From Polyangiales bacterium (GTDB lineage Bacteria; Myxococcota_A; Polyangia; Polyangiales; Ga0077539): 64,000 nucleotides of DNA. Below the pieces are notes generated by a model. The model did not search any database. It was not told the DNA's origin and saw nothing but the letters and a program-made list of their open reading frames with translations. Numbering within the stretch: position 1 is the stretch's first letter; each line of letters opens with the position of its first letter. Of this stretch, positions 23,920-62,696 are shown piece after piece. Location of the stretch: the NCBI GenBank assembly GCA_044229975.1, contig JBGARZ010000009.1, positions 219,947 to 283,946 of the forward strand. The letters run 5' to 3'. Both the position numbers and the translations under genes were made by a program.

Positions 23920-23947
23920 CACAGGGTGAATGGTCGCATGCGGACGC

Positions 23948-24478: not shown

Positions 24479-24528
24479 TTCAACGCTCGGAAGATGGTAA
24501 ACGACGACGCCCGCGGATTGTACCGCTG

Positions 24529-27144: not shown

Positions 27145-27147
27145 GCG

Positions 27148-30831: not shown

Positions 30832-30895
30832 CTCGACACCCCTCTCTCGACTTAGCTCGACCCCTCGCCACCCGCCGCCCCCGCCCCTCGCCCGC

Positions 30896-33757: not shown

Positions 33758-33977
33758 TGGGCGGCGCGCAGTCTGCGCCCCGACGCGTCCCGCCGGGAAG
33801 AGGGAACCACCCCGCGGCCTCGGCGCCGTTCCTCCATCGGGGGACTGCTTTGCCCCTGGTGGCGCTGACTATTCCTGACCGGTGGCTGCGGGCCGGTGCG
33901 CCACGAGTTCGGCACGAGCGCACCTGCATCAAGGAGCTTGCGTTCGCTCCCTTTTGTCCGCTCTCGGGGCGGTCCGC

Positions 33978-35203: not shown

Positions 35204-35222
35204 GAGCGGGTTCGGAGTGGGA

Positions 35223-38200: not shown

Positions 38201-38345
38201 GGAGGGTCTCGTAGACGGCGGAGACCTGGTGGGGCAGCGGATCGATGCGCGCGACGTGGACGGCGAGGCGCGGGTCGAAGAGCGCCGCGTGGAGGACGCG
38301 CCAGGACTCGAGGGCCAGTCGCACGGGGTCGGGGGTGGTTCCCAT
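35223..38345 (-). CDS. SNF2-family helicase (DrmD / MADS-helicase-like) with a long C-terminal extension
   Basis: LADDPGAGKT, DEAHRL, MSATPHDGS, helicase-C motifs FLVATDAAGEGINLQ and QRFGRVHRIGQ. 1040 aa. Confidence 0.8.
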   Translation of the reverse strand: MGTTPDPVRLALESWRVLHAALFDPRLAVHVARIDPLPHQVSAVYETLLVQRPLRFVLADDPGAGKTIMAGLLITEMRARGLLRNCVVVAPGSLVDQWRDELWTRFDLRFDLPTRTDLVRADEWFVEHPFAVVRLDQVARDPAFVARVAAVHWDLAVFDEAHRLSTGWNGQRLDPTQRFSFARRVAAEARDVLLMSATPHDGSEERFQAFLQLVDGDRFAGKFRDGVHTPRIDDLIHRRLKEDLVRFDGSALFPPRRAVTVNFALSPREKSLYESVTQYVRTEFDRAEATEGRGRTVGFALTVLQRRLASSPSAIHRSLSSRRAKLAARLAALRARSFRAEEESLSDDELESALDLPGAETEAEESALAEGATAARSIDELADEVDRLAELEVESRALLQAKVDCKRERVAELLTSAAMVDRLGRRRKLVVFTEHRDTLTYVADFLANLRGRAECVVTIDGSMDRAQRLAAQRAFADEEGTEFLVATDAAGEGINLQCASLVLNWDIPWSPARIEQRFGRVHRIGQTETCQLWNLVADGTRETEVFQALCRRLEEESKSLRGQVFDVLGAAFSERPLRDFLLDAVRGGRHEAARAGDAVGRQVDEAVTRQHEFSRRVDETAAREAAARQLRALRDDMDRAAGQQLGRACLEPWFVAALGSIQGRAFPRSEGRYAVNFTPPAWRAHDATLPQRPPPIGFDPLAGDEVVRLTAAHPWARALALAVARDALHTPAAYVDPFDGGSEPWWLVAVSQALTHGEGARLDEAAWLVAVRADGSVRPLAGPAHLDLRSTTDEERACLAAMDPALPARPDSLRAAIDEALLVPWRRAVRTRHEKAIDVIEREVMARLSAETQQAHRLKVEAQARGHHGAKKAQQQSELEKTLRGRMFERRAELAGLRAVAEGDVDIVAVVPVVPAGLVGGLALDGGRDEVAIAAVMRAEALRGRDLRDVRAQRAGWDLEAREPATGALRFWVVRGVPEGAASVTLRRSEAMALRHAPERVALVVVEVNDEGTTGIPVVLDGLAGAMPGFEEPVVVVALG

Positions 38346-38372: not shown

Positions 38373-40946
38373 CTAGACCACGATGGCCGCGAGAGTGGTC
38401 TCGACCTCGTCGAGGCCGGGCCGCGCTCCGGGCTCGTGGGTGGTGCATGCGCGCGAGAGCTTCACCCACGACGGCAGCATCACCTTGTCGACGTCGGTCT
38501 GGCCGGTGAGCAGATAGGCGAGCAGCTTGCCGAAGGCGTAGACGTCCGCGCTCGGGTGGGCCTCGGCGCCGTCGACCTGCTCGGGGGGCGCGAAGCCCGG
38601 CGTGCCGAGTCCTGCAAAGGTGCGGTGCTGCGTGACGAGGCGGCGGAGGTTCTTGGCGATGCCGAAGTCTCCGAGCTTCCAGCGGCCGCCTACGCAGAGC
38701 ACGTTCTCTGGCTTGAGGTCTCGGTGCACGACGTCGAGGGAGTGCAGCTCACGCAGGGCGGCGAGCACGGTGAGCGCGATGGCCTTCGACTCGGCAGGCG
38801 TGAGCGGCTCGGGCTTCGCGCGGACGAAGGCGTCGAGGGTGCCGCCATCGGCGAACTCGGTGAGCAGAGCCACGTGGGTGTCGTTGTGCTCGATGCCGAG
38901 CACCCGCAGCACGCCGTCGGAGTCGGCGCGGTGCAGCCGCGTGTAAACGTCGATCTCCCGGCGCAGCGCGTCGCCCGCGAGCCCGTCGACCGGGACCTTC
39001 TTCATGAACGCGATGGTGCCGTCGCGCCCGCGCACCTTGAAACCATCGGACATGCCGCCGCCGGGCATTCGCGCGAGCACCTCGTACTGATCGAAGAGCG
39101 TCTCGGTGGGGCGGCGGTCTTCGCTCACCACCGTCGGCAGCGGGCCGCCGAAGGTGCGACGGGTCTCCTCGGAGTCGCGGCCGTTGATGGGCTTGCCGGT
39201 CAGGCGCTCGACGCCGTCGAGGAGGCGTCGGGCGCGCTCGCGGTAGAAGGTCGCGAAGTCGTCCTGCCGCAGCGAGCGGGCGTCCATGCAGTGGGTGCGG
39301 AGGAGCTCGTCTAGGTCATTGGCCTTCACTCCGCCGCGCTCGACGCGCGCGAGGTACACCGATGGGTTGACCAGGCCGAGCCGCTTCCAGGTGCGCGAGG
39401 TGCGCGGCGTTTTGTTGAGGATCGACTTCTGGATCGACGGCGGAAACTGCCCCGTCTTCCCCGTGAACCACGAGTCGGGGAAGGCGTGGTGGAGGTCGAC
39501 GTCCTGGGCGAAGTAGGTCGACCGCTCGATCTCGTCGCCCGACAGAAGGTCGCGGGCGCCACGTTGCAGCAGCAGCGCCATGAAACCCTTGTAGGCGGCG
39601 CTGAGTCGCATCGAGAGGGTGGCGAGTCGCGACGGTGAGAAGTTGCAGTCGCGCACGGTGGATGGCTCAGGGCCGCCGTCGATCCAGAGCAGCACCTCGG
39701 AGATGTCCTTGCCGAAGCGCGTCTCGGTGGTTCCGCCGTAGAGCTCGCCGAAGACGCCGCACCAGTACCAGCGGAGGAGCTTCTCCCGCGCGGTGGGCTC
39801 GTCGACGCGCGGACCGAGCGCCGCCGCGATGGCCGCGAAGGGGATGAGCTGGCTCTTGTAGGGGAGGTACCGGGTGTCGAAGATGCGCTCGCGTTCGAGG
39901 AGCCGCGACGCGGTGACGAAGCCCTCGTACACGGCATCGGCGTGGACGTTGTACTCCTCCAGCGGGAGGTTGAGCATGTCGACGCGCCGGCAGCCGACGT
40001 GGATCCGGCGGTCGTTGGCGCCGCGCTTCCACGACGAGAGCAGGGAGATGGCCTGGAGGAAATCGGTGGCGATGATCTCACCGAGGATGCCGTGAGCGGC
40101 GAGCGCGCGCTGGCGCTTGTCCCACTCGACGCGCATGTCGACCGAGCGCGCGGCGTAGGTGGCGGTGACGAGTTCGAAGACGTCGAGGGGCTTGCCGCCG
40201 GTGTTCACCTTCTCGAAGACCATGCAGATGGCCTGTCGCGAGGTGGTGCGCCCGAGCTCGATGGAGGGCACGCGGTACTGCTGAATCGACTGGATCACCT
40301 CGCGCTCAAAGCGGTTCCAGAGTTTCGCGATCTCGGCCGCGTGCTGGTGAAAGTCGCTCAGCCCGTAGCGCCAGTCCTGACTCGCGGCGACGTCGAAGAC
40401 GGTGGCGACGGGAATGCAGAGGTTCTCGTAACACTTCTCCGGGGTCGACAGGTCGAGGTCGATGGTCCGATTGAAATTGCTCCGTACCTGCAAGGAAGGG
40501 TCGAGCGCGAGCACGGCTTCCTTCCGCTCGATGCCCTCGTCGAGGCACTTGCGGATGTCGAAGAAGTACACCCGCTTGATGGCGTTGCCCTTGGTGTCGA
40601 GAGTGGGCACCGGCACGCCCGCCCGGAAGGTCGAATAGAGGGCGGTGAGGCGCTGCTGCCCATCCAGGATGAGGCGCCGCTCCAGCCCCGGGTTTTCGGG
40701 CGCGCCCTCGACGGAGCGGGCCTTGAACTGCACGTCGCCCCCGCACTCGAGGAGCAACACCGCGCCGACAGGCCAGGCCTGCGACACCGACGCGACGAGG
40801 TCACTGATGCGATCGTCGTCCCAGACCCACGAGCGCTGGAAGTCGGGAAGCTGGAGCACCCCGCGGTGGATCTCTTCGAGGAGATCGCGGAGGGGCGTCT
40901 CGGCCGGACGAAAGGTCATCTGTGCGGGCATCGGGGCGCATGACAC
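38373..40946 (-). CDS. GmrSD-like type IV restriction enzyme (DUF262 ParB-like plus DUF1524 His-Me nuclease) fused to a C-terminal Ser/Thr protein kinase
   Basis: DUF262: LPDFQRSWVWDDDRISDL...LILDGQQRLTAL. DUF1524: DLHHAFPDSWF. Kinase: AFMK, HRDLKPENV, DFG, GTPGFAPPE. Confidence 0.7.
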   Translation of the reverse strand: MSCAPMPAQMTFRPAETPLRDLLEEIHRGVLQLPDFQRSWVWDDDRISDLVASVSQAWPVGAVLLLECGGDVQFKARSVEGAPENPGLERRLILDGQQRLTALYSTFRAGVPVPTLDTKGNAIKRVYFFDIRKCLDEGIERKEAVLALDPSLQVRSNFNRTIDLDLSTPEKCYENLCIPVATVFDVAASQDWRYGLSDFHQHAAEIAKLWNRFEREVIQSIQQYRVPSIELGRTTSRQAICMVFEKVNTGGKPLDVFELVTATYAARSVDMRVEWDKRQRALAAHGILGEIIATDFLQAISLLSSWKRGANDRRIHVGCRRVDMLNLPLEEYNVHADAVYEGFVTASRLLERERIFDTRYLPYKSQLIPFAAIAAALGPRVDEPTAREKLLRWYWCGVFGELYGGTTETRFGKDISEVLLWIDGGPEPSTVRDCNFSPSRLATLSMRLSAAYKGFMALLLQRGARDLLSGDEIERSTYFAQDVDLHHAFPDSWFTGKTGQFPPSIQKSILNKTPRTSRTWKRLGLVNPSVYLARVERGGVKANDLDELLRTHCMDARSLRQDDFATFYRERARRLLDGVERLTGKPINGRDSEETRRTFGGPLPTVVSEDRRPTETLFDQYEVLARMPGGGMSDGFKVRGRDGTIAFMKKVPVDGLAGDALRREIDVYTRLHRADSDGVLRVLGIEHNDTHVALLTEFADGGTLDAFVRAKPEPLTPAESKAIALTVLAALRELHSLDVVHRDLKPENVLCVGGRWKLGDFGIAKNLRRLVTQHRTFAGLGTPGFAPPEQVDGAEAHPSADVYAFGKLLAYLLTGQTDVDKVMLPSWVKLSRACTTHEPGARPGLDEVETTLAAIVV

Positions 40947-44547: not shown

Positions 44548-44793
44548 ATGACCAGGCAGATTCTCATTGCGGGGTCGTGCGGCCTCGTCGAACGCGCTCG
44601 GCCCCCCTCGCTCACCGCCACGGGCTACGCCGTAGGTGGTTTCGACGTGGCGCCGCCGCGCACCTACGACGTCGCGCGCTTCGTGGGCAACCCGTCGCAC
44701 GCCCTCGACCGGCTCGACTGGCGCCCGACGACTCCGCTGTCCGAGAGCCTCGACCGACTGATCACGACGTTCCGCGAGGAGGGATCCCAATGA
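44548..44793 (+). CDS. Micro-ORF resembling the fused N- and C-termini of an NAD-dependent epimerase/dehydratase; gene remnant or small coupled ORF
   Basis: MTRQILIAGSCG resembles the Rossmann N-terminus; YDVARFVGNPSHALDRLDWRPTTPLSESLDRLITTF resembles the epimerase C-terminal tail. Stop overlaps the next ATG (ATGA). RBS AAGGGA. Confidence 0.3.
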   Translation: MTRQILIAGSCGLVERARPPSLTATGYAVGGFDVAPPRTYDVARFVGNPSHALDRLDWRPTTPLSESLDRLITTFREEGSQ

Positions 44794-47144
44794 AGGTGCT
44801 CCAGGTCATCCACGGCTACCCCATGCGCTACAACGCCGGGTCCGAGGTTTACACGCAGACTCTCTGTCACGGCCTCTCCGACGCAGGCCACGAGGTGCAC
44901 GTCTTCACCCGCGAGGAGGACTCTTTCGCCGAAGACTTCGCGATTCACCGCGAGCGCGACGCCGACGATTCGCGCGTAGCGCTCCACGTCATCAACAACC
45001 CGCGCAGCCGCGACCGCTACCGTCACGCCGGCATCGATGCCCGCTTTGTCGAGGTGCTCGAATCCCTCCGCCCCGACGTGGTGCACATCGGGCACCTCAA
45101 CCATCTGTCGACCTCGATCGTGCGCGAGGCAGCGGCCCGCGGTGTTCCGGTGGTGTTCACGCTGCACGACTACTGGGTGATGTGCCCGCGCGGACAGTTC
45201 ATGCAGATGCACCCCGCCGACGGAGGCGAACTCTGGGCCGCCTGCGACGGGCAGCAGGATCGCAAGTGCGCCGAGCGTTGCTACGCGCGCTACTTCTCGG
45301 GTGCCTCCGACGAGTACGAGGAGGACGTCCGCCACTGGGAGCGCTGGGTCGCGCGCCGGATGCAGGACCTCCGCGAGGTCGCCGATCTCGTCGATCTGTT
45401 CATCGCTCCGACCCGCTACCTCCACGACCGCTACCGCGACGAGTTCGGTCTGCCCGAGCGCAAGCTGGCTCATCTCGACTACGGCTTCGACCTCGCGCGA
45501 TTGCGCGGAAGACAGCGCCAACCCGGCGAGCCCTTCACCTTCGGCTACATCGGGACGCACATCCCGGCCAAAGGGATCCACCAGCTCATCGCGGCCTTCG
45601 GCGACGTGCGAGGCGACGTGCGTCTCCGCATCTGGGGGCGCCCGCGCGGGCAGGACACCGAAGCCCTGCGAGCGTTGGCGGCGGCGCTCCCCGGCGACGC
45701 GGCGAGCCGGGTCGAGTGGACCTCGGAGTATCGCAATCAGGACATCGTCGCCGAGGTCTTCGATCGGGTCGACGCCATCGTGGTCCCTTCGATCTGGGTC
45801 GAAAACTCGCCTCTCGTCATCCACGAGGCCCAGCAGTCGCGCGTGCCGGTCATCACCGCCGACGTCGGCGGGATGGCGGAGCTCGTTCACCACGAGGTCA
45901 ACGGCCTCCTCTTCGAACATCGCAACCCGCGAGCGCTCGCCGCGGCCATGCAGCGCCTGGCGGACGACCCCGCCCTCGCCCGCGAGCTCGGCGCGCACGG
46001 CTACGTCCATTCGAAGGACGGCGACGTGCCCGACCTGAACGAGCACGTCCGCGCGATCGAGGGGCTCTATCGTCGCGTGATCGCGCAGCGCGAATCGACC
46101 CGCGTGACGCACGCGGCGGGGCCGTGGCGCATCACCTTCGATACCAACCCCGATACCTGCAATATGAAGTGCGCGATGTGCGAGGAGCACTCGCCACACA
46201 GCCTGTCGCAGCTCGGGCGGAAGAAGGAGGCGCAGCCGCGGCGGGTGATGCCGATCGAACTGCTCGAGCGCATCGTCGTCGAGGCCGCGCCCAAAGGGCT
46301 GCGCGAGGTGATCCCTTCGACGATGGGTGAGCCACTGTTCTACGAGCACTTCGAGCGGATCATCGGGGTCTGCAAGGCCCATGGGGTGATGCTCAACCTC
46401 ACGACCAACGGCTCCTTCCCCCGGCTCGGCGCGCGGGCGTGGGCCGAGCGGCTCGTGCCCATTACCTCCGACATCAAGGTCTCCTGGAACGGCGCCACGA
46501 AGCACACCCACGAGGCGGTGATGATCGGCTCCAACTGGGAGCAGTGCCTGGCCAACGTCCGCACGCTCATCGAGGTGCGCGACGCCCACGCGGCGGCGGG
46601 CGGCAACCGCTGCCGCGTGACCTTCCAGATGACCTTCCTTGAGACCAACGTGGGCGAGCTCGCGGACATCGTCCGTCTCGCGGCGAAGTTGGGAGTCGAT
46701 CGACTCAAGGGACACCACCTCTGGGCGCACTTCGGGGAGATCGAGTCGCTCTCGATGCGACGCGACCTCGGGTCCATCCGCCGATGGAACGACGCCGTCC
46801 GCGACGCCCAGGCGGCCGCGCGCTCCGACCGCCTGCCCGATGGGCGCGAGGTGCTCCTGGAGAACATCTTCCCCCTCGCTGAGGACGCCACGCAAGATCT
46901 CGCGCCGGGCGGCCCGTGTCCCTTCCTCGGTCAGGAGGCATGGGTCAGCGCGCTCGGTCGCTTCGACCCGTGCTGTGCGCCCGACGCCCAGCGACGGACG
47001 CTCGGCGAGTTCGGATCGCTTCATGATCAGAGTCTCAACGCGGTCTGGCAGTCGGAGCCCTACCGCAAACTTGTCGCGACCTACCGCAACCGCGCTCTCT
47101 GCCTCTCCTGCAACATGCGCCGACCGGCCGCGGAGTCCCGATGA
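44790..47144 (+). CDS. Fusion protein: GT4-family glycosyltransferase (GT-B) plus radical SAM domain with a SPASM-like C-terminus
   Basis: GT4: EAQQSRVPVITADVGGMAELVHHEVNGLLFE. Radical SAM: CNMKCAMCEE (CxxxCxxC). Auxiliary Cys motifs: CPFLGQEAW, RFDPCCAPD, CLSCN. Strong RBS GAGGAGGG before the ATG at 44790. Confidence 0.7.
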   Translation: MKVLQVIHGYPMRYNAGSEVYTQTLCHGLSDAGHEVHVFTREEDSFAEDFAIHRERDADDSRVALHVINNPRSRDRYRHAGIDARFVEVLESLRPDVVHIGHLNHLSTSIVREAAARGVPVVFTLHDYWVMCPRGQFMQMHPADGGELWAACDGQQDRKCAERCYARYFSGASDEYEEDVRHWERWVARRMQDLREVADLVDLFIAPTRYLHDRYRDEFGLPERKLAHLDYGFDLARLRGRQRQPGEPFTFGYIGTHIPAKGIHQLIAAFGDVRGDVRLRIWGRPRGQDTEALRALAAALPGDAASRVEWTSEYRNQDIVAEVFDRVDAIVVPSIWVENSPLVIHEAQQSRVPVITADVGGMAELVHHEVNGLLFEHRNPRALAAAMQRLADDPALARELGAHGYVHSKDGDVPDLNEHVRAIEGLYRRVIAQRESTRVTHAAGPWRITFDTNPDTCNMKCAMCEEHSPHSLSQLGRKKEAQPRRVMPIELLERIVVEAAPKGLREVIPSTMGEPLFYEHFERIIGVCKAHGVMLNLTTNGSFPRLGARAWAERLVPITSDIKVSWNGATKHTHEAVMIGSNWEQCLANVRTLIEVRDAHAAAGGNRCRVTFQMTFLETNVGELADIVRLAAKLGVDRLKGHHLWAHFGEIESLSMRRDLGSIRRWNDAVRDAQAAARSDRLPDGREVLLENIFPLAEDATQDLAPGGPCPFLGQEAWVSALGRFDPCCAPDAQRRTLGEFGSLHDQSLNAVWQSEPYRKLVATYRNRALCLSCNMRRPAAESR

Positions 47145-52794: not shown

Positions 52795-53125
52795 GTCTCG
52801 TCGGCTTCTGTCTTCGTCCGGGCGACGTTGTGGGTCGTCCTTGCACGGCGACGTTGTGGGAGCGGGCCGAGCCGCGTCGCGAGCCGCACGCCGACCCATT
52901 CGACCGACGCTCGGAAGTGCGACGACGCGACGCGGAGGGGAATGACCGGAGGAACCTTTGCGTGGCGTCCCATGGACGACGACGCTCGCATGGTCGGCGC
53001 GCACGATTCAATCTCTCGAAGCGGCCCGCGATGCGGCGCGATGTGGCGGCGCTCCCCGCTATGACTCGCGTCGGCCCGACAGCGGCGCCATGGACCTGCG
53101 CCTCGCAGTCCTGCCGCCGCGGCTG

Positions 53126-54334
53126 CTACTGCGGTCGCAGCGTGAAGTTCCACCGCCCGCTACCGCAGGCTCGCGAGCCACCGCCAGCGACGAAGGTCTC
53201 TCGCGTGAACCCCAAGGTGATGTCTTCGCAGATCGCGTCGGAGCCTGCGACGTCGCGGTCTCGGAATGTCGTCGGCACGCCGGCCATCAACATTCCGGCG
53301 GTCACTACGGGCAGCGCGTAGTTCCAGTTCGGCGCGACGGTGTCGCTCGCCTCCGGCGTGCAGTTCTGCCGCCCGTTGAAGGTGACGCACACGAACGGGT
53401 CCGGCGCTCCACCCAACGAGTCCCACGAGGCGCCGGTTCCCGTGCGCTCGGCGACCGTTCCGCTCGTCACGGTGATGACCCACCCCGAGCCCGGCACGAC
53501 GTTGCAGGTTCCAGCACTACCGCATGCGAATCCACGCCCACACTCGGCGCCGCATGTCCCGCCGCAACCATCCGAGCCGCAGGTGCGCCCGGCGCAATTC
53601 GGCGTACAGACGCAACGCCCCGCCGCTGAACACGGCTGCCCCGATGGGCAAGCCCCACAGGTCCCACCGCATCCGTCGGAGCCGCAGGTTCGTCCTGCAC
53701 ACCGCGGGCTGCAGACGCAGCGTCCCAGCATGCAGCTCGACCCCGCAGGACAAGCACCACCGAGCGACCCACAGCTGCGACCTTCGCAGTAGAGGCCCGG
53801 ATCGGCGCCGCACTCCCGGCCCGTGCACTCCGAGCGGCAGACCATCGTGGGCGTCACGCACTGCCCCTGCCCGTTGCAAGACTGCCCGCTCGGACAGCCT
53901 CCACCGTTCGCCCCGCAGACGCGCCCACCGCAGCCAACACCTGGGTCGGCTCCGCATTGGCGACCGCCACAACCCGACTGGCAAGTCAGTGCAGTTCGCA
54001 GACATACGCCGAGCACGCAGTCACCGCCGTCGGAGCAGGTGCCACACGATGTGACCGACCCGTCGGCGCCGCAGGTCCCGCGGCTGCAATCTCCGGCGCC
54101 GCAGCTGCCGCAGCCACTCCATGACCCTGGGAGGCCGGCGCATTCCTGAAGACCCTGTGTGCCGTTGTCGCAGCGACAGAGACGTGCCTGTCCTTCGAAG
54201 CACGGGTCGTCCTGCGACCCGTCGATGCTCGTCGTTCCCGAGTCCACCCTGAGCAGCGGGTCCGGGCGGGGACTGCATGCCAGCGTCCCCACGACCAACA
54301 CCCCCGCGAGCACCCACCCGTTCCGCCCTGCCAT
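53126..54334 (-). CDS. Secreted lipoprotein with Myxococcus-type cysteine-rich repeats
   Basis: Signal peptide plus lipobox MAGRNGWVLAGVLVVGTLAC. About 10 tandem repeats CxxxCGxDxCGGxCGxCxxGxxC. Confidence 0.65.
   Translation of the reverse strand: MAGRNGWVLAGVLVVGTLACSPRPDPLLRVDSGTTSIDGSQDDPCFEGQARLCRCDNGTQGLQECAGLPGSWSGCGSCGAGDCSRGTCGADGSVTSCGTCSDGGDCVLGVCLRTALTCQSGCGGRQCGADPGVGCGGRVCGANGGGCPSGQSCNGQGQCVTPTMVCRSECTGRECGADPGLYCEGRSCGSLGGACPAGSSCMLGRCVCSPRCAGRTCGSDGCGGTCGACPSGQPCSAAGRCVCTPNCAGRTCGSDGCGGTCGAECGRGFACGSAGTCNVVPGSGWVITVTSGTVAERTGTGASWDSLGGAPDPFVCVTFNGRQNCTPEASDTVAPNWNYALPVVTAGMLMAGVPTTFRDRDVAGSDAICEDITLGFTRETFVAGGGSRACGSGRWNFTLRPQ
53390..54160. repeat. Tandem coding repeats (Cys-rich repeat units) inside the lipoprotein gene
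   Basis: Repeated nucleotide units encoding the ...CGSDGCGGTCGAC... modules. Confidence 0.5.
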
Positions 54335-54471
54335 CGCGCGCTCCTGACGTTGCACCGCGAGCAGCGGAAGCATCAGAAACGCCTCATGCGCCGATGTTCA
54401 CGCTGCCCGCGAGGGGCAACCATATGCCAGGGCGTCTGTTACGCAATAACTCTTTGTAGCCACGATCGAGC

Positions 54472-55257
54472 GTGCGGCGGAAAGCCACCTTGCGTGACCC
54501 GCTGTATCGCTCGCCCGAGTACCTGGACCTTATCGGCCGGGTCGCGACCAACGTCCGAAACCTGCGGCAAGGCCACGGGTGGACGCAGGAGGAAGCCGCG
54601 ACCCGCTGCGGCCAGTTGTCGGTCTACGTACTGCGGCAGATCGAGAGCGCGCAGACCAACGTCACGGCCGTGACCCTGGCCCGTCTCAGCGCCGGCTTCG
54701 GAGTCGATGTCGCGACCTTCCTGGTTCCGGCTCCCACTCCCACTCGACGCACACCCGGACGACCAGCGCTGATTCCCCAGGTCGTTGCCCCGGGTCCGCT
54801 CCCACGACGACAAAACGGAAGCGCTGAAGAGAGAACGACCGGAGACACCTCAACGGCCCAGAGCGACCCGACCGCTCGCATTGGGAGCGTCGAGACTCAG
54901 CCAGCCTCCTCGACTGTCCCCGTCCATGTGGGCACTTCCACTCGGCTCGTCGCCACGGACGTCGTCGTACCGACCTATCCCTCAGCGCAGACCCAGACCT
55001 TCACCCTGCCCGAGCTCCGCGACTTCATCGCGACGGTTCTGGCGGCGAACCCCGCGGGACTCACGGCGAGCGAACTCCTCCATGTCGCCCGCTCCGCTGG
55101 TCAGGAACGCCTGGTCGCCAACAGCCTCCACTACGCCCTCCACCACCTCGTGCGCAGCGGCTACGTCCAGCGGACGGGCGCTCGCGGCAGCTACCTGCAC
55201 CGGTGGTTGGGCGGGAAGACTTCTGCCGTCTCGGATCGTCAACCGTTGCAGGACTGA
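54472..55257 (+). CDS. XRE-family HTH transcriptional regulator with a C-terminal winged-helix-like domain
   Basis: HTH_3: LRQGHGWTQEEAATRCGQLSVYVLRQIESAQTNVTAVTLARLSAGFGV. Confidence 0.6.
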   Translation: MRRKATLRDPLYRSPEYLDLIGRVATNVRNLRQGHGWTQEEAATRCGQLSVYVLRQIESAQTNVTAVTLARLSAGFGVDVATFLVPAPTPTRRTPGRPALIPQVVAPGPLPRRQNGSAEERTTGDTSTAQSDPTARIGSVETQPASSTVPVHVGTSTRLVATDVVVPTYPSAQTQTFTLPELRDFIATVLAANPAGLTASELLHVARSAGQERLVANSLHYALHHLVRSGYVQRTGARGSYLHRWLGGKTSAVSDRQPLQD

Positions 55258-55347
55258 CCCGGCCGCCACCACGACAACCGGACACCTCGTCATCACCAGC
55301 AGGGTAGGCGAAGGGGCGGGATGGGTCCGGCCACCTTCGTGCACTCG

Positions 55348-55392
55348 AAGAGTCACTTGCTTTGACTGTCACTTCTGTCACGATTGTCATGT
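55348..55392. promoter_or_regulatory. Operator-like cluster of TGTCAC repeats upstream of the 55384 gene
   Basis: gagtcacttgc tttgactgtcacttctgtcacgattgtcatg: four GTCAC half-sites in 45 bp. Confidence 0.3.
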
Positions 55393-57051
55393 TCACCGAC
55401 GATGCCCTCACGCAAACCATCACCTCCAAAACCTCCGGTATCCAAGAGATCTCCGGGCGTCTCTCCAGGTCATCGGCCTCGGCGGCGACCTCTGCGAGCC
55501 CCACCGGTCGGCCCGTCGAACACCGACGCGCCAACAACGGTCCGCGAGATCGTCGTCGGCTTCGACGAGGAGGCCGTAGCCAACGCCGGCATCGCGGCAC
55601 TCGCAGCGTGCCCCGAGCTGTTCACCCACGCCGGACAGCTCGTCACGCTGGTGCCCCGCTCAATTCCTGGCGCCGCGCTCGACCGCTCTCCGCAGACCCT
55701 GCGTATCGAGCGCCTGCCCACGCCTCGCCTGCGCGAACTCTTGAGTCGCTCAGCGCGTTGGCTGGTCCCCCGGACCGACGACCCCCAGGACCACATCGTC
55801 AGTCACGTTCCGCAGTGGGTCGTGGCCGGCATCGCCGCGCGCCGTGAATGGCCCGGTCTGCGCCCGCTCGCGGGCCTCATCCACACGCCCGTGCTGCGAT
55901 CCGACGGGACGGTTCTGGAGACCCCCGGCTACGATCCGGCGACAGGGCTCTATCTCACCCCCAACGCCGAGTACCCGCGGATCGCTGCCCGGCCGACTCT
56001 CTCCGACGCACGTGCTGCCGCTGATCTCCTCGTCGAGACCGTGACTCACGTCCCCTTTGCGACGGCGGCCGATCGGGCCGCGTGGCTCACGATCGTGCTC
56101 ACGATCTTCGCGCGCTTCGCCGTCGGCGCCGCCTCTCCGCTCTACGTGGTCGAGGACTCGCGCCCCGCGAGTTGGACCAACGAGCTGGTGGACCATACCG
56201 CCTCCATCGTCGGCCTCGGCCCCGTCGCTGCGGTTGAAGCCGACGATTTCATTCCGGCGCCCCGTCGATGGATCGACCTCCTGCTGGCGCAGGGTGAGTC
56301 CCTCGTCGTCTTGCGCAACCCCTCCGTCCAAACGCCGACCGGCTGGCGACGGATTCGCGAGGTACTTGAGCGCTCTCACGCCACCAGTGGATTGACCTGG
56401 TGCACGACGCTTGTTCGGGCGCAGCGCGACCTCGACCTGCTCCGTACGGGGCTGTCCATCCGCTGCGAAAGCAGCGACGGACTCGCACGCATCGGACCGC
56501 AAGAAACACCTCACCGAGGGCTCCGCCAAGGGCCGACGCCGCGGCTCGCGGTCGCGGCGCTAACGATGCTCCGCGCCTATCAGGCCGCCGGAGTCCCTGA
56601 CCAGCATCTCGTACCGTGGTCGGGCTTCGAGCGCTGGTCGCACTTCATTCGCTCGGCAGTGGTCTGGTGCGGCTACCCCGACCCGGTTCTGACGAACGTC
56701 CCCTCGTCGGAGCCGACGACGTCGGCGCTCGCGACGGACGCCGCTGCCGCTGATCTCGTCCTGGGTTGGGCGGACCTGATGGTCGACCACCCTGGGGGGT
56801 GCAGCGCCAGGCAAGCGCTCGATGCGTTGAGTCTCGAACCGACGAAGTACCCGCGTCTCCAAGCAGCGTTGAAAGTCTTCGCCCCGGGCCCCCTAAACGA
56901 TCGCAGTACGGCCGACCGCCTGGGCCGCTGCTTGACCCGGCTCCGCGACGTCGAACACGAGGGATACGCCCTCGTCTTCGTGACCAGCGGAAACCAGGGC
57001 AACCGATGGACGGTGCGACCGACGACGACGGCCCGGGGGCGCGAAAGGTGA
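55384..57051 (+). CDS. Hypothetical protein of the integrative element (555 aa); start uncertain
   Basis: Long GC3-biased ORF with no P-loop. N-terminal ~45 aa are Pro/Arg-rich and may be non-coding. Confidence 0.45.
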   Translation: MSCSPTMPSRKPSPPKPPVSKRSPGVSPGHRPRRRPLRAPPVGPSNTDAPTTVREIVVGFDEEAVANAGIAALAACPELFTHAGQLVTLVPRSIPGAALDRSPQTLRIERLPTPRLRELLSRSARWLVPRTDDPQDHIVSHVPQWVVAGIAARREWPGLRPLAGLIHTPVLRSDGTVLETPGYDPATGLYLTPNAEYPRIAARPTLSDARAAADLLVETVTHVPFATAADRAAWLTIVLTIFARFAVGAASPLYVVEDSRPASWTNELVDHTASIVGLGPVAAVEADDFIPAPRRWIDLLLAQGESLVVLRNPSVQTPTGWRRIREVLERSHATSGLTWCTTLVRAQRDLDLLRTGLSIRCESSDGLARIGPQETPHRGLRQGPTPRLAVAALTMLRAYQAAGVPDQHLVPWSGFERWSHFIRSAVVWCGYPDPVLTNVPSSEPTTSALATDAAAADLVLGWADLMVDHPGGCSARQALDALSLEPTKYPRLQAALKVFAPGPLNDRSTADRLGRCLTRLRDVEHEGYALVFVTSGNQGNRWTVRPTTTARGRER

Positions 57052-57054
57052 ACC

Positions 57055-57165
57055 CCAGATGGAAGTGGAAGTGCTTGAATTGAAGCGCTTCCACGAAGCT
57101 TCCACGACGTGAAACCACTTTCACAGAGCTTCCACGAGTTTCCTGTGGAAGTGACGATCCTCCGC
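57055..57165. repeat. Iteron-like cluster A: GTGGAAG / CTTCCACGA(G) motifs in both orientations
   Basis: ggaagtggaagtg, gcttccacgaagcttccacgacg, ctttcacag, gcttccacgag, tgtggaagtgacg. Confidence 0.55.
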
Positions 57166-57244
57166 CCATGAACCGGTCGTGGACCCACGCGAACGACGCC
57201 GGAGGCTCTCCGCCCCTCGCGTCCGCACTCATCCTACCGGGTCC

Positions 57245-58801
57245 CTACAGCCGAACGACCTTCACCGCGCGCCCGCCCGCCGTGGTGACCGCCTCGACGG
57301 CCTGTCGCTCGGGCAGCGCGGGGACGTTCTTCCGCTGATCGAAGAGCACCAACCACCCCTCCGCCACGCCCAGTCGCGCGAGGTATCCGTCGAGCTGCGT
57401 GAGTCCATCGACCGTCGGGTCCTTCGCCTTGTCGGCGTCGCGCCAGGTCTTGACCTCAATGCCCAGCCGCTCGCCGCGATACGCCACGCAGAGGTCGAGC
57501 CGCTTGGAGCCGATGGCGTACTCGCGCTCAATCCTCCCGCCGCCGTTCACCACCCGGTGCAGGAAGGCCATCATCACCAGCTGCGGTGCCGCCTCGTTGT
57601 ACGGCGAGCTCGCGAGCAACGCCTCGCCGTGCTGCACCCAGAACGCGATGAAGGCCTCCAGCAGCCGGTCGAAGTCCATGCGCCCGTCCGCCGCGAGCCA
57701 CGTCGGCGTCATCACTGGCAGCGACGCGCGCATCGTCACCGTGAGCTGCCGCGCGATGATCTCCCGGTAGATCGGGTTCGCCACCTCGACACCGCCGTCG
57801 GCGCGCTCGCGCACCAGCCCGAGGTCGAGCACGAAGCGAAGGTCGTCGGGCGCGAGCGCCGCCAGCGATTCCCCCTGGATCATCGGCTCGATCACCGCGC
57901 GCACCCGCGGGTCGCGCAGCCGCTCGGCCAGCGAGTCCAGGTGCGTGTCCTGCCGATCGACGAGGACATCGCGGGCGCGGTCGATGTCGGCGACGGTGAT
58001 CGACGTCGCGCGGTCGGGCTTCAGCTCCGTCGTCACGACGTACGCGAGCGCGTTGACCAGCCATGGCTGCCCCTGGGTGTGGGCGAAGGCCTGCCGAAGC
58101 GCGTCGTCCTCGAACCGCTGCCCCGTGTCGGCGGTGTGCTGCCCGTAGAGCTCGCCGACCTCGTCGGCCGTGAACTCGCGCATCGTCAGCGAGCGCACCT
58201 TGATGTTGAACGGCGACGCCGTGTGCAGGTGCTCGCTACCGCCCGAGGCGACCTTGTAGTCGCGCACGTCCCGCAGCCCCACGAGTCCCAGCGCCCACGG
58301 GAAGCCCGCTGGCCTCGAGCGGTGCCCCGCGCGGAGCTGTCGCAGCACCGACAGCAGCACGTTGTCCCGCAGCGCGTCGATCTCGTCGAGGAAGAGCACC
58401 AGCGGCCGCACGCTCGCCTCCGACCACGCCTCGAGCGCCGAGCCGATGCGCGAACCCGCCTGCGTGTCGGGCCACGGCGGCGGCTGCAGGTCGGCCGGGA
58501 GCTGGTGTCGCGCCGACCGACGCCACTCGGCGAGGATCGCGTGCTCGGCGGCGCCCACGTCGTCAGGGAAGGCGGCCCCGGTCTCCATCGACACGAGCAA
58601 CGCTGCGTACCGGCCCTCGGCCGTCAGCGCTGCGCCAAGCGAGAGCAGCGCGGTGGTCTTGCCCACCTGCCGCGGCGCATGCAGGACGAAGTAGCCTTGC
58701 TGGTCGATCAACTCCCTGACCCCGGGAAGCCGTCGATCCGGCGGCAGCATGAAGTGCAGGTCCGGCTTGCACGGCCCGGCGGTGTTGAAGTGGCGGCTCA
58801 T
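57245..58801 (-). CDS. AAA ATPase (Orc1/AAA_14-like) with a C-terminal PD-(D/E)XK-like domain
   Basis: MSRHFNTAGPCKPDLHFMLPP...FVLHAPRQVGKTTAL...LVLFLDEID. C-terminal IGSKRLDLCV...GIEVKTW. Start chosen at 58801. Confidence 0.65.
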   Translation of the reverse strand: MSRHFNTAGPCKPDLHFMLPPDRRLPGVRELIDQQGYFVLHAPRQVGKTTALLSLGAALTAEGRYAALLVSMETGAAFPDDVGAAEHAILAEWRRSARHQLPADLQPPPWPDTQAGSRIGSALEAWSEASVRPLVLFLDEIDALRDNVLLSVLRQLRAGHRSRPAGFPWALGLVGLRDVRDYKVASGGSEHLHTASPFNIKVRSLTMREFTADEVGELYGQHTADTGQRFEDDALRQAFAHTQGQPWLVNALAYVVTTELKPDRATSITVADIDRARDVLVDRQDTHLDSLAERLRDPRVRAVIEPMIQGESLAALAPDDLRFVLDLGLVRERADGGVEVANPIYREIIARQLTVTMRASLPVMTPTWLAADGRMDFDRLLEAFIAFWVQHGEALLASSPYNEAAPQLVMMAFLHRVVNGGGRIEREYAIGSKRLDLCVAYRGERLGIEVKTWRDADKAKDPTVDGLTQLDGYLARLGVAEGWLVLFDQRKNVPALPERQAVEAVTTAGGRAVKVVRL

Positions 58802-58974
58802 CGGCGGCGCAGCATAGCCGACGAGCCCGGGGGCTCGCGCTGGTTCGGCGGTCGATGGCGACGGCAGGTCACGATCGTCGCGACCACCCCGCGAGAGGAT
58901 CGCCTCGGACATGGGCAGCTCGTGGAAGTACCCGCGGGACGACACCATCCGTAAGCTATTGAAACCAGGCAGCT

Positions 58975-59280
58975 TACACTTCTCGTGAAAGTCATCTGTA
59001 CGTACCCGCACTCAGCTTTCACGTCGCGCATGTGAAAGTGGGTGGCCGACTTTCACGAGCGGGTGACCTCGAAGGCGCGGTGGCCCTCGACGGCCAACGC
59101 GGGCTGGTGGTCGAGGACGTGGCCGCGGTCCCGGGAGCGAGATAGCGAACGCGAGCAAACGGCTTGCGGGCAGAGCGATCGCGCACTTGTGCGACGGCCC
59201 GCGTGGCTCCGATCGGGCGAACGTAAGCCCTCGTGAAAGCCCTCGTGAAAGCCCTCGTGAAAGTCGTGGAAGTCGTCCTT
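58975..59280. repeat. Iteron-like cluster B: CTCGTGAAAG / CTTTCACG motifs, including 3 perfect tandem 12-mers (gccctcgtgaaa x3) followed by gtcgtggaagtcgtcc
   Basis: tctcgtgaaagtc, gctttcacgtcg, tgtgaaagtgg, gactttcacgagc. Tandem array at about 59226-59275. Confidence 0.6.
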
Positions 59281-59409
59281 CAAGCGCCACCTCTTCGAGG
59301 GCCCTGCAGCGGACGACACCGGCGCGGCCGGCCGCCCTGATCCCCGCTATCGGCGGCACCGTGCCCATCAAGTTGGCACCCTGGGATTCGTCGGTCAGGA
59401 AGAGGGACC

Positions 59410-60384
59410 ATGCCGAAACCCTCGCGTGACTCTCAACCTCCGACGACCTCAACCTCGGAACCCAGACGGCGCCTCCGCTTGAACGCGAAGTTGTCGTCGA
59501 TGGGTGCCGCCCCAGCGCTGGGTGTGCCTGCGCCTGTCGATGAGGCCTTCTCCGAGACGCTGCAGCTCACCGCGGAGTCGCGCCTCGTGATGAGTACGAC
59601 CGGCAACCTGTCGTCCTGGTGGACGCGGATTGAAAAGCTCCGACCGGACGGCAGCTGGCAGGTGGATCCATCTCCTGGTCTGCGGCTCGAGGACGTTCAT
59701 GTGGATCAGTACCGCGATCTGCTGGAGGCGCGCTTGCTGAGGGCCGGCGCCCTTCCACCCCCGGTCCCGTTGATCGCCCTCGCAGAACGTCACGAGTGGG
59801 ATGCTCGCACTGGTGACCCGGACGCTCTCGTCATCGCGAGGGTGCTGCAGGCGCTGGCCTACGCCCTGCGAGACGATCCGGAGGTGGTCACTGAGTTACT
59901 CAACTTCGCGCACGCCTACATGCTCCAGCGGCGCCCAGGCCACGTTCCACTGGGGTCGGGAGACCCGCGGATCAAGCGTTCGGGGCGACGACCCGTCGCG
60001 GCGCTCCGCCTCCTCAAGTGCGCCCGCAACGCGATGCGTGATCTGCCTCCACTTCGGCGAGAAGGTCCAACCGAGGAGGAGAACGATGAGTACCTCGACG
60101 AAGCCGAGCACCTCGCCTGGGAGGTCGAACATCTGTACCCGGCCGTCTACCCGAAGAAGTTCTCCGAGCAGCAGTCGGCCATCACGGCGCTCAGCGAGGA
60201 GCTGATGGCCATGCGGAAACGTGAGCCGGATCGCATCGCCAAGGCAGCGCTGCGAGCGTGCGGGATGTCCTCGAGGCAGGCGTCCGACACGTTCGCCTTC
60301 CTCGACAAGAAGTCGAAGCGCAAGGCGGAGACAGAGCCCGGAGCATCGGCTGGTCGCGTTTCGCCCTCGGAGAATTCTCGGTGA
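59410..60384 (+). CDS. Hypothetical protein of the integrative element (324 aa)
   Basis: GC3-biased ORF divergent from the ATPase gene. No recognisable domain. Confidence 0.45.
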   Translation: MPKPSRDSQPPTTSTSEPRRRLRLNAKLSSMGAAPALGVPAPVDEAFSETLQLTAESRLVMSTTGNLSSWWTRIEKLRPDGSWQVDPSPGLRLEDVHVDQYRDLLEARLLRAGALPPPVPLIALAERHEWDARTGDPDALVIARVLQALAYALRDDPEVVTELLNFAHAYMLQRRPGHVPLGSGDPRIKRSGRRPVAALRLLKCARNAMRDLPPLRREGPTEEENDEYLDEAEHLAWEVEHLYPAVYPKKFSEQQSAITALSEELMAMRKREPDRIAKAALRACGMSSRQASDTFAFLDKKSKRKAETEPGASAGRVSPSENSR

Positions 60385-60434
60385 GAGTCCGATGACCGTG
60401 GTGGAGGCGTAACGCGTCTGCTCCGCTGCGGGTC

Positions 60435-60890
60435 GTGAGATCTCGGTCAGCGATCACTGCACGACCCACCGGCCCCGTCGCCGAGTCGTCCCTCCACGCA
60501 TCCCAAGGACACACTGTTGGCGATGCCGCCCGTGAGGCCGTCGAACTCCCGCGCCACCTCACGGCGCGCGAGATCTTCGTGCAGTTGCCTGGCCGAAGTC
60601 TCCGCTGGATCTACGATCACATGCACAAGGCCGGGGGCGCACGCGGACTGGTCCGCGCTGACCTCTGGGCCCGACACCTGGAGCAACTCACCTCATGGCA
60701 ACCCTCCGACGCAAAGGCCGCTACTGGTACCTCCGCGACCGCTCCGGCGGCACCGACACCGAGGTCGGGACCGGCTGTACCGACCGCAAAGCCGCCGAAG
60801 CGTGGCAACGCCAGTGGGAGCGTGACCGCGCCGATCCCGAAGGTGCCGCCCGTCGCACGGCGGCGGCGACCACGCTCCAACGCGCCGTAG
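60435..60890 (+). CDS. Excisionase/AlpA-like small HTH protein (Xis candidate); 3' end uncertain
   Basis: LTAREIFVQLPGRSLRWIYDHMHKAGGARGL resembles AlpA/Xis HTH_17. Lies directly upstream of the integrase; the tail overlaps the integrase frame. Confidence 0.35.
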   Translation: MRSRSAITARPTGPVAESSLHASQGHTVGDAAREAVELPRHLTAREIFVQLPGRSLRWIYDHMHKAGGARGLVRADLWARHLEQLTSWQPSDAKAATGTSATAPAAPTPRSGPAVPTAKPPKRGNASGSVTAPIPKVPPVARRRRPRSNAP

Positions 60891-61894
60891 ACCTCGAGCA
60901 CGACCGGCACCTCGCCGAGGAGAGCGCGGGGAAGCTCGCGAGCAACACGGTCGCCTTCTACAAGAGCAAGCTTGGCGTGGTGCTCGACGTGATCGGCGGC
61001 GAGACCCCGATCGTCGAGGTGAGCTCCGCGACCGTGGACCAGTACATCCAAACCCGCCGCGACGACGGCGCCTCGGACCACACCATCGCCAAGGAGCTAC
61101 ACGCGCTGAAGGGTGTCCTCGCGACAGCCCGACGCGCGAAGCTCTGGTACGGCCGCGTCGATGAGGTGATGCCCGAGCGCTTCTCGCCCAACTATCGACC
61201 GCGGACGCGCTTCCTGACGGTCGCTGAGGTCCTCAAGGTGATCGGCGAGCTCACGCACGACCGGGCCGCGTGGGTTGCTCTCGCCGTCGGGGCAGGTGCC
61301 GAGCTCTCGGCGCTGCAACGCGCCGAGCGCGGCGACCTCGACCTCAAGCGCGGCCTCGTTCGCGTGCGCGGCACCAAGAACGAGCGGCGCGACCGTGAGG
61401 TGCCCATCGTCCTGCCCGAGTGCGAGCAGCTCGTCGAGCTTGCGTTCAAGTGGGGACAGGGAACCGACGGCAAGCTCCTGCGCCCTTGGGGCAAGAACTG
61501 GCGCGACCTCGACGACGTCGCGACCGACCTCGGCATCGAGCCCTTCTCGCTGCACTCGCTGCGGCACACCTTCGCTACGTGGCACCTCGCCGCGGGCATC
61601 CCCTGGGACGAAGTCGCCCGCGCGATGGGGCACGCGGACACGACGATGCTCCACCGAATCTACGGGCACATCAGCGGGGACGAGCTGCGCAACCGCCTGC
61701 TCCGCGCGCTCAACGAGAGCAAACCGACTTCCCCGGATGTTCCCCGCGACGGGGCGCAAGAGGCGCATTCGGCGCGCCCGGCGCGCGACCCCAGAAATGA
61801 CGAAAGCCCTTCTCTCGAAGGGCTTTCTGGGTACCGGCGGTCGGACTTGAACCAACGACCTGAGGATTATGATTCCCCTGCTCTAACCAGCTGA
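60695..61894 (+). CDS. int: Tyrosine recombinase / phage-type integrase whose ORF reads into the adjacent tRNA gene
   Basis: Catalytic residues in context: R (VRVRGTKNERRDREV), HSLRHTFATW, GHADTTMLHRIYGH (R..H..R..Y). The ORF's last ~20 codons overlap tRNA-CAT. Confidence 0.8.
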   Translation: MATLRRKGRYWYLRDRSGGTDTEVGTGCTDRKAAEAWQRQWERDRADPEGAARRTAAATTLQRAVDLEHDRHLAEESAGKLASNTVAFYKSKLGVVLDVIGGETPIVEVSSATVDQYIQTRRDDGASDHTIAKELHALKGVLATARRAKLWYGRVDEVMPERFSPNYRPRTRFLTVAEVLKVIGELTHDRAAWVALAVGAGAELSALQRAERGDLDLKRGLVRVRGTKNERRDREVPIVLPECEQLVELAFKWGQGTDGKLLRPWGKNWRDLDDVATDLGIEPFSLHSLRHTFATWHLAAGIPWDEVARAMGHADTTMLHRIYGHISGDELRNRLLRALNESKPTSPDVPRDGAQEAHSARPARDPRNDESPSLEGLSGYRRSDLNQRPEDYDSPALTS

Positions 61895-61905
61895 GCTACA
61901 CCGGC
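61832..61905 (-). tRNA. tRNA-Met(CAT): tRNA with anticodon CAT (elongator Met or Ile2/lysidine type)
   Basis: Minus strand: GCCGGTG-TA-GCTC-AGCTGGTTA-GAGC-A-GGGGA-ATCATAA-TCCTC-AGGTC-GTTGG-TTCAAGT-CCGAC-CGCCGGT-A, then CC. Clean cloverleaf, U33, A37. T-arm resembles tRNA-Ile2. Confidence 0.8.
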
Positions 61906-62036
61906 GTGGGGCGCGGACTCTACTGATCGGCGCTTCGCTGTCAACCCTTTCCTCCCGCCGTCCTCCGCTTCCGTCGGTCCGCTTCGCACCTTCCGGCGCC
62001 GCGGGCGATGGGGATATAACCGCGCCCAACCCACCG

Positions 62037-62696
62037 ATGAGCGACATCTCCCCCAACGAACGCGATCGCCTGCTCGAACACTTCGGCCGGCGCTACGCCA
62101 ACGGCGAGGTGATCTTCCGCGAGGGCGACGCCGCGCGCGAGGTGTTCATGCTACAGGAGGGCCGCGTGCGCGTCGCCAAGCGCGTGCGCAACGTCGAGCG
62201 CTCGATGCACATCCTCAAGCCCGGCGACCTCTTCGGCGAGGTGGCCCTCGTGCCCGGATCGCTCCGCAACGGCAGCGCCTTCGCCCTCTCCGACGTCGTC
62301 GTCCTCGCCCTCGACCCCGACACCTTCACGCAGCTCCTCTCCGGCTCGCCCGCCGTCGCCACGCGCCTCGTGCAGCAGCTCGTTCGGCGCCTGCGCGACT
62401 CCGAAGACCAGCTCGAAAACGTCCTCCTCCGCGACCCCACCTCCAAGGTCGTCAACACGCTCCTCAAGCTCGCCGCCGAGACCGGCCGCACCTCCGGCGG
62501 CGCGCAGATCGCCGTCTCGCCCCTCGAGCTCTCCGCCCGCGCGTCCCTCGACGTCGACGCCGTGAAGCGCGCCGTGCTCCAGCTCCGCGAGCTGCAGTAC
62601 ATCCGCATCGCCGAGGAGAAGGTCGCCATCGACGACATCGACGCCCTCCGCCGCCTCTACACGCTCCTTGGCATGCAGGAGCAGGTGCGCGGCTGA
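62037..62696 (+). CDS. Crp/Fnr-family transcriptional regulator (cNMP-binding domain plus C-terminal HTH)
   Basis: GEVIFREGD...FMLQEGRVRV...GDLFGEVAL and a C-terminal HTH (TSGGAQIAVSPLELSARASL). Confidence 0.65.
   Translation: MSDISPNERDRLLEHFGRRYANGEVIFREGDAAREVFMLQEGRVRVAKRVRNVERSMHILKPGDLFGEVALVPGSLRNGSAFALSDVVVLALDPDTFTQLLSGSPAVATRLVQQLVRRLRDSEDQLENVLLRDPTSKVVNTLLKLAAETGRTSGGAQIAVSPLELSARASLDVDAVKRAVLQLRELQYIRIAEEKVAIDDIDALRRLYTLLGMQEQVRG

Follow-up and report, generated by a model that had tools for sequence, protein, structure and literature searches.

The integrases of the myxophage Mx8 and of archaeal SSV extend across attP, the attachment site in its unintegrated form (PMC4383910). 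Integration of Mx8 alters the C-terminal region of its integrase IntP, as stated by the title of Tojo et al. (1996), cited in PMC4383910 and in a review of myxobacterial tools. Here we describe an integrase gene that appears to share this design, in a 64,000-nucleotide stretch of DNA from a Polyangiales bacterium (GCA_044229975.1, contig JBGARZ010000009.1 of 432 kb, positions 219,947 to 283,946 of the forward strand), hereafter the window. An earlier note on this DNA had pointed to an integrase gene running into a convergent tRNA-CAT gene as the boundary of a genomic island. We conclude that positions 61729..61905 are very probably the right attachment site (attR) of a tyrosine-recombinase element in the 3' half of tRNA-CAT, and that in this family the integrase open reading frame (ORF) crosses the attachment core and has its C-terminus swapped on integration. 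An ORF that runs through the core is already known, as the Mx8 type; here it is conserved across a whole integrase clade of uncultured myxobacteria, on phages, conjugative-type elements and islands, and is not the curiosity of a single phage.

The likeness to Mx8, with its intP/intX, its attP inside int and its uoi gene, has several parts. The int ORF crosses a core that is the antisense of the 3' part of a tRNA gene, and the Mx8 Int peptide ...GVARSTGLEPV... reads by eye as antisense-tRNA-like. Integration replaces a C-terminal segment with a few host-encoded residues, here at the level of the family rather than within one element. A small gene overlaps int just upstream (uoi in the annotated Mx8 genome), and the host is a myxobacterium. 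The two systems also differ. Here the core lies far past the catalytic Tyr and only ~35-50 residues are swapped, whereas Tojo and colleagues reportedly found 112 residues swapped in Mx8. The target is tRNA-CAT here, in contrast to tRNA-Asp genes, and the first catalytic Arg (Arg I) is canonical in Mx8 Int but is Glu here.

What is shared with the archaeal SSV integrases is an attP that lies within the int ORF. Integration of SSV splits int in two and separates the catalytic domain; by contrast, the catalytic domain is kept whole here and the tail alone is exchanged.

The locus also resembles the Islander-type islands at tRNA genes (with P4-like and lambda-like heterobivalent integrases). The integrase stands beside an intact tRNA gene whose 3' half is restored by the element, the core ends at the anticodon stem as in the common anticodon-centred class (PMC4383910), the fold is lambda-Int-like with an arm-binding domain, and the region holds defence and other cargo. 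Two features by which Islander recognises islands were found: an integrase that abuts an intact tRNA gene, and a segment absent from relatives with its breakpoint at the tRNA. Unlike such islands, however, the locus has no displaced tRNA fragment at its other end within 61.8 kb left of the tRNA, and its int ORF overlaps the core rather than stopping before it. The earlier note had spoken of a classic arrangement. That description suits a tRNA-integrated island; an int ORF that crosses the attachment core belongs to the less common Mx8/SSV type (PMC4383910).

Anatomy of the right attachment site

The junction and its surroundings comprise the following features.

60695..61894, plus strand: tyrosine integrase, 399 residues, integrated-form version (Pfam PF00589 Phage_integrase at residues 188-326; phrog_1 integrase, 1.4e-42)
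61729..61905, no strand: attR junction (alignment A1 of attR, attP and attB)
61729..61754, plus strand: candidate arm-type Int-binding motif of the P arm, TTCCCCGGATGTTCCCCGCGACGGGG, translated SPDVPRDG (repeated in attP forms)
61802..61827, minus strand: terminator hairpin of the tRNA gene, 11-bp stem and T-rich tail (terminator scan and fold)
61830..61905, minus strand: tRNA-CAT gene, intact (ARAGORN, called tRNA-Met; Rfam tRNA model 61832..61905, 61.5 bits)
61831..61877, no strand: common core of attR, 47 nt that span the tRNA from its 3' acceptor end through the 5' strand of the anticodon stem (alignment A1)
61917..61944, minus strand: promoter-like site of the tRNA gene on the chromosomal side, TTGACA-16-TAGAGT (promoter scan, 10/12 matches; 0 expected in shuffles)
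62037..62696, plus strand: Crp-like cNMP-binding regulator of the chromosomal right flank (Pfam; syntenic in 55 related loci)

Because the 47-nt core recurs at all three kinds of site, attR (integrated), attP (unintegrated) and attB (empty), it has to contain the crossover, for which the anticodon-loop region would be the likely point. The P-arm motif is a 26-mer that is unique within the window at up to 3 mismatches. It occurs twice in attP forms (at 11035 and 11257 in locus L061, at 5484 and 5708 in L065) and is conserved in loci L008 and L013, which suggests that it may be an arm-type Int-binding site. In the attP forms the motif stands downstream of the catalytic domain and is followed by the hairpin and by the tRNA 3' half, which ends at GATTCCC; beyond this comes unrelated sequence with a second copy of the motif ~220 nt after the first. 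This layout is that of a P arm, a core and a P' arm. No tRNA gene was found in the attP-form loci. Past 61877 these forms diverge from the window: similarity between L061 and the window stops there, and similarity between L065 and the occupied site L011 stops at the equivalent base.

The attP forms lie on different kinds of element. In L061-L064 the integrase is 78% identical to that of the window and adjoins DUF87 and Replic_Relax genes on a conjugative-type element. Baseplate-wedge, tail-fibre and RecT genes on the 41.5-kb contig L065 identify it as a tailed phage. The attP form L067 carries ParB-methylase and DUF5131 genes. A scan of IMG/VR with the family alignment gave distant relatives only, at most 35% identical.

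The tRNA gene on which this junction lies is the single one that ARAGORN calls in the whole window, as tRNA-Met(CAT). We take it not to be the initiator, given its G1-U72 wobble pair and the A31-U39 pair beside the loop; it would then be either an elongator tRNA-Met or a lysidine-modified tRNA-Ile2. ARAGORN, Rfam, Pfam and the ORF coordinates agree with the earlier note that the int ORF has no stop until 61894, inside the convergent tRNA. The stop codon TGA (61892-61894) falls in the D-arm, and the ORF and the tRNA overlap by 65 nt, in antisense. Because the hairpin at 61802..61827 comes right after the tRNA, the tRNA terminator sits within the int ORF. This element-type hairpin recurs in the attP forms L061 and L067, and another hairpin stands at the empty sites L006, L009 and L010. 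Moreover, the window's tRNA 3' half has changes absent from relatives at the locus, GGACTTG in the T-loop and CCTGAGG in the anticodon stem. This variant also underlies the peptide RRSDLNQRPEDYDS of an attP-form protein (P0008), which fits a 3' half borne by the element. That the element supplies this half had been proposed in the earlier note, and the attP forms of related integrases indeed carry exactly that segment.

A Logan contig identical to the window's right flank (L001, SRR28480386) ends at 61863 in the anticodon stem, the point where the window tRNA departs from all relatives (CCTGAGG versus CCTTGGG), and all five short contigs with the Crp-like gene (5/5) break in or just past the tRNA. 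These breaks look like assembly forks from strains with different 3' halves or island states.

The Crp-like gene retrieved 55 related loci from metagenome-assembled genomes of Polyangia-type myxobacteria. The right flank of Crp-like, TPR, HTH_25 and RecO genes is syntenic across all close relatives. Five related genomes or metagenome contigs (L006, L009, L010, L076 and L077, the last two being metagenome contigs) are empty sites with the same tRNA and right flank, and to the left of the tRNA they have DAGK-like, photolyase, COX2-like, SCO1/SenC and UbiA genes. Alignment with the window begins only at the tRNA 3' end (window 61825-61831). None of the left-flank genes was found anywhere in the window, where tblastx of the flanks gave compositional noise only. 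Since this flank is missing, at least 61.8 kb has been inserted relative to the empty sites, and none of the 61.8 kb left of the tRNA is present at them. A metagenome scan with the native terminator plus core, which gave the two metagenome contigs among these empty sites, found no left attachment site (attL). The comparison with strains lacking the island that the earlier note had called for thus upholds its choice of the tRNA as integration site and island boundary; this right boundary falls at 61830. The right end of a defence-rich insertion of at least 62 kb is in this way fixed to the nucleotide, and its missing left end becomes predictable.

Other relatives have integrases at the same locus: L008 (78% identical to that of the window), L013 (72%), and L011 and L012 (both 49%). 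All four terminate at the same TGA. The content left of the tRNA differs in nearly every relative.

Two loci deserve separate mention. L013 has two integrase genes in inverted orientation, 1706..2776 on the minus strand and 3748..4941 on the plus strand (51% and 72% identical to that of the window), and this pair at one tRNA suggests nested or successive insertions. L007 (1..2600), a close relative, lacks an integrase in the 2.5 kb next to the tRNA, yet it has the element-type hairpin, its similarity to the window reaches 61772, and its OmpA/TSP3 and metallophosphoesterase genes were found in no other locus. It may be an element remnant rather than a true empty site.

The encoded protein is a tyrosine integrase (PF00589, 53.9 bits against a cut-off of 27.1) with a weak SAM-like N-terminal domain in Pfam. 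Residues 1-338 are confidently folded by AlphaFold into a lambda Int-like structure with an N-terminal arm-binding domain, and Foldseek matches this fold to XerA, Tn1549 Int and full-length lambda Int, each at a probability of 1.00. For residues 339-399 the coding sequence is that of the P arm, followed by the terminator hairpin and the tRNA gene in antisense. The final five codons (PALTS) and the stop are sequence of the host tRNA 5' half.

This read-through recurs in the family. A protein search gave a set of 59 homologues, and in 48 of them the antisense tRNA 3'-half peptide is present, 44-95 residues past the catalytic Tyr. The four peptide types point to four or more different tRNAs. The family falls into two states. 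Thirteen homologues stop 6 residues past the antisense-tRNA peptide, which is the integrated form (the tRNA-CAT version ends ...RRSELNQRPWDYD-SPALT[DS]); integrated-form integrases end 6 residues past the DYD motif. The other 35 peptide-bearing homologues read on, mostly for 35-59 more residues, with a few outliers at 16, 112 and 129.

We read the junction as follows. Three parts come from the element, namely the P-arm motif, a terminator hairpin that replaces the native one, and the 3' half of the tRNA as far as a crossover in 61831..61877; the tRNA 5' half and its promoter come from the chromosome. The element belongs to a family present in metagenome-assembled genomes of Polyangia-type myxobacteria, whose int ORF, in the attP state, reads ~35-50 codons into the element's other arm. 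Integration swaps those codons for five from the host (PALTS), with a stop in the D-arm of the tRNA, and the window protein is the shortened, integrated version, as IntX is to IntP in Mx8. The exchanged C-terminus may modulate integration versus excision, and the HTH-like ORF upstream may encode the excisionase. The int-proximal 9 kb is the conserved backbone, and the 52 kb further left, with the defence genes, lies in the same inserted region.

Read-through of the tRNA gene: chance or design

Several observations weigh against an attR with a swapped integrase C-terminus. The attB, attP and attR that we compare were taken from different lineages and not from one element. Sequence similarity to Mx8 Int is absent (BLASTP E = 3; no tblastn phage match at 1e-5), so the window integrase, judged by analogy, would work like Mx8 but stand outside the Mx8 Int protein family. 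Because Glu replaces the canonical Arg I, activity of the integrase is not to be assumed. Its tail, residues 339-399, is predicted to be disordered, with an AlphaFold confidence score (pLDDT) of ~30, below 50. In the window's clade the tail from catalytic domain to hairpin is near-neutral, with a ratio of non-synonymous to synonymous differences per site (pN/pS) of 0.71-0.81 versus 0.37-0.49 for the core. Some 51-55% of random 60-codon windows in this DNA of ~70% GC content are free of stops, and read-through in this single sequence is statistically unremarkable. Lastly, the window holds no second core, hairpin, P-arm 26-mer or L061 P' DNA and no match to the 35 attP-form tail peptides, nor was an attL found within 10 kb in the related loci L006-L021, L073 and L074. 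As no attL was found, the window's copy can only be called putatively mobile.

The stop-poor DNA, the disordered tail and the near-neutral linker would all suit a read-through without function, in which an ordinary tRNA-integrated island carries an integrase that effectively ends near residue 338, and the ORF simply drifts on. We regard this as possible but improbable. Of the three frames, two run into stops in the T-loop or anticodon region and a single one passes through the antisense tRNA 3' half, yet 48 of the 59 homologues read through, always in an open frame, at four or more tRNAs and after spacers of 44-95 codons; family-wide, this goes beyond chance. Moreover, Mx8 is an experimental precedent for a frame that crosses its core. 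The part of the frame that lies beyond the core also argues against drift. Among three attP forms of the phage clade, the DNA for the P'-encoded motif GDGRSTWR differs at six places, all synonymous and none non-synonymous, and pN/pS of the entire P' tail is 0.49-0.66 versus 0.15-0.23 for the core. This pattern suggests that the P'-encoded extension is translated and under selection. Our own reading of the contrast between linker and end is that the linker is a mere in-frame spacer and the P'-encoded end the functional part, missing from the window's integrated copy.

Of its catalytic residues, the integrase has K228, H287, R290, H313 and Y323. In place of Arg I stands Glu203 (codon 61301..61303), and in alignment A2 the 59 family members have Glu there in 50 cases, Asp in three, Cys in two and Gly in one; Arg is found only in the three most distant members, as well as in Mx8 Int. 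Nine residues past this position, R212 is present in 54 of the 59, and K, Arg II, His and Tyr are conserved. Functional tyrosine recombinases with a missing or shifted Arg I have been described, IntDOT and IntDes of Desulfovibrio (PMC8138268). As in these, the first Arg of the RKHRH pentad is gone from its usual position in our integrase, and from the alignment R212 could be the nearby invariant Arg that substitutes for it. Unlike these, our integrase has Glu at that position and belongs to another family in other hosts. Glu at the Arg I position looks unusual.

These features allow a bolder proposal, which we put forward tentatively and think more likely to be wrong than right. The Polyangia integrases would form a large, undescribed clade, spread over tailed phages, conjugative-type elements and defence islands and with four or more tRNAs as targets, in which a core within the enzyme's own ORF acts as a sensor of state. 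The 35-50 residues past the core (LFxPGK..RR or PWxGDGRS) would be needed for integration and lost by it, biasing the enzyme towards stability or excision, and Glu at the Arg I position would work. In any case, the family offers a natural set of proteins for asking whether the C-terminal swap and this Glu matter, and its candidate integrase/attP pairs are potential tools for myxobacteria that are hard to engineer.

Left end and fate of the insertion

The earlier note had seen no second attachment repeat by eye, and our searches of the window agree. It had set a direct repeat of the tRNA 3' end as the test of its reading, and such a repeat is absent within 61.8 kb: blastn-short gave no match longer than 12 nt to 61780..61960 in the window, only chance matches of 10-12 nt, and the 27-mer of the tRNA 3' segment that the note had suggested has no second copy at up to 3 mismatches. 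The left end must thus lie outside the window or have been lost. We put down to chance one further match from these searches, 27377..27433 (E = 0.006), which falls within a gene.

If the left end has been lost, the junction may be the fixed remnant of one or more past elements, with attL deleted or rearranged, no excision, and defence genes gathered separately at a hotspot. The absence of attL in 61.8 kb would be expected from such a remnant, as would the end of similarity to the sister island at 52865 without any attachment-like feature, the rve/TniB-type transposon at 3053..6025, a GC content that ranges from 0.57 to 0.75, and the different content left of the tRNA in nearly every relative. 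We nevertheless doubt it. The integrase ORF is uninterrupted and keeps K, R II, H and Y, and no damage is seen in the P arm, the hairpin or the core. A tandem array should leave internal tRNA fragments, and none were found. Furthermore, the missing attL could simply be further left than the window reaches, given that Islander accepts islands as long as 200 kb and that one of 611 kb is known (PMC4383910).

That the recombinase is a chromosomal XerC/D-type housekeeping enzyme beside the tRNA by chance is hardly conceivable, for although its best NCBIfam and PDB sequence matches are Xer-type, their scores are low (41.7 and 58.4 bits, where the XerC and XerD equivalog cut-offs are 335 and 330; 42-59 bits, where the cut-offs are 220-335), the gene is missing at the locus from the five empty-site relatives, near homologues lie on a phage contig and a conjugative-type element, and the N-terminal arm-binding domain is lambda-Int-like, so that the comparisons refute it and the earlier note, which had seen here an integrase of another kind, is sustained.

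Under the reading that we prefer, an attR whose partner lies further left, the missing end can be described in advance. It should consist of the core GTACCGGCGGTCGGA[AC]TTGAACCAACGACCT[TG][GA]GGATTATGATTCCC, followed within ~150 nt by a second copy of TTCCCCGGATGTTCCCCGCGA, and it should be preceded by the DAGK-like gene and the native terminator (AAAAGGCCCCGTTTCC..GGAAACGAGGCCTCTTCTTCTCT).

Backbone genes and possible defence cargo

The genes next to int form a module of ~9 kb that is common to the window and L008: a Cys-rich gene, an XRE regulator, a 555-residue protein, an ATPase, a 324-residue protein, an Xis-like ORF and int.

52865..54373, minus strand: left part of the ~9-kb module, shared with the related island L008/L078 (blastn, tblastx)
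53126..54373, minus strand: Cys-rich gene, 415 residues, inside the left part of the shared module
54472..55257, plus strand: XRE-family helix-turn-helix (HTH) regulator (Pfam HTH_3, HTH_31; 66% identity in L008)
55384..57051, plus strand: 555-residue protein (phrog_29234, 8.9e-30; phrog_19930 DNA polymerase/primase, 2.4e-8; 68% identity in L008)
57245..59011, minus strand: AAA_35-type ATPase, 588 residues (Pfam; 93-95% amino-acid identity in L008, L011 and L012)
59225..59263, no strand: perfect 12-nt tandem repeat, AAGCCCTCGTGA x 3.2 (Tandem Repeats Finder), in the 400-nt gap between the divergent ATPase and 324-residue genes
59410..60384, plus strand: conserved 324-residue protein (82% identity in L008, 34% in L011 and L012)
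60435..60890, plus strand: small HTH-like ORF upstream of and overlapping int (motif LPRxLTAxE..VPGRSxRWxYDHMxKAGG)

This list corresponds to the genes that the earlier note had read from the sequence: the XRE regulator, the 555-residue protein, the ATPase, the repeat, the small HTH-like ORF before int and the integrase. By its matches to a phage primase/polymerase family, the 555-residue protein is a candidate replication protein. The 12-nt repeat looks iteron-like and could be a binding site for a regulator or a replication protein. The 324-residue protein has no family match in Pfam, PHROG or NCBIfam.

The small HTH-like ORF probably starts near 60540. Its motif is conserved upstream of int in eight loci: L008, L013, L061-L064, L065 (the phage) and L066. 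It has no match in Pfam, PHROG or NCBIfam, so the label of excisionase derives from its position; it is a candidate excisionase or directionality factor.

The ATPase stands apart from its surroundings. Its homologues (5214..6920 in L008, 4971..6575 in L011, and one in L012) have neighbours whose identity is no more than 34-82%, and in both L011 and L012 the gene lies in the opposite orientation. Such conservation suggests that this gene alone was exchanged recently or that it is under unusually strong constraint.

Whether the rest of the region belongs to the element is less clear. The earlier note had thought that the whole defence region may be cargo of the element, which is plausible, although the part shared with the closest related island ends at 52865. 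A conserved backbone with variable cargo fits the region, though it may also be a composite of several acquisitions or a fixed remnant. The 52 kb left of the module holds a Druantia DruE, HmaA/HmaB/HmaC, an RdrA/RdrB-like pair, two fusions and the rve/TniB-type transposon. A prophage is not supported, as no structural genes were found in the subset of ORFs scanned.

Within this region, the DruE (Druantia) homologue is a protein of 2095 residues (6930..13217, minus strand; 1495 bits in PADLOC). Its neighbours are a UvrD/GajB-like helicase, two unknown genes and a PD-(D/E)XK nuclease, with no other named Druantia gene among the neighbours scanned. The Hma genes (HmaC 18055..21399, HmaB 30896..33757, HmaA 35223..38345) are split by a block of lower GC content that carries an RdrB-like gene (24529..27144) and a weak RdrA-like gene (27148..30831), so that one defence system seems to be inserted inside another over 18055..38345. 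The two fusions, both unusual, follow. The first (38373..40946, minus strand) joins a GmrSD_N nuclease domain to a Ser/Thr protein kinase, and the second (44577..47144, plus strand) joins a family-4 glycosyltransferase, whose matches include the 'GT4-conflict' model, to a radical SAM/SPASM domain.

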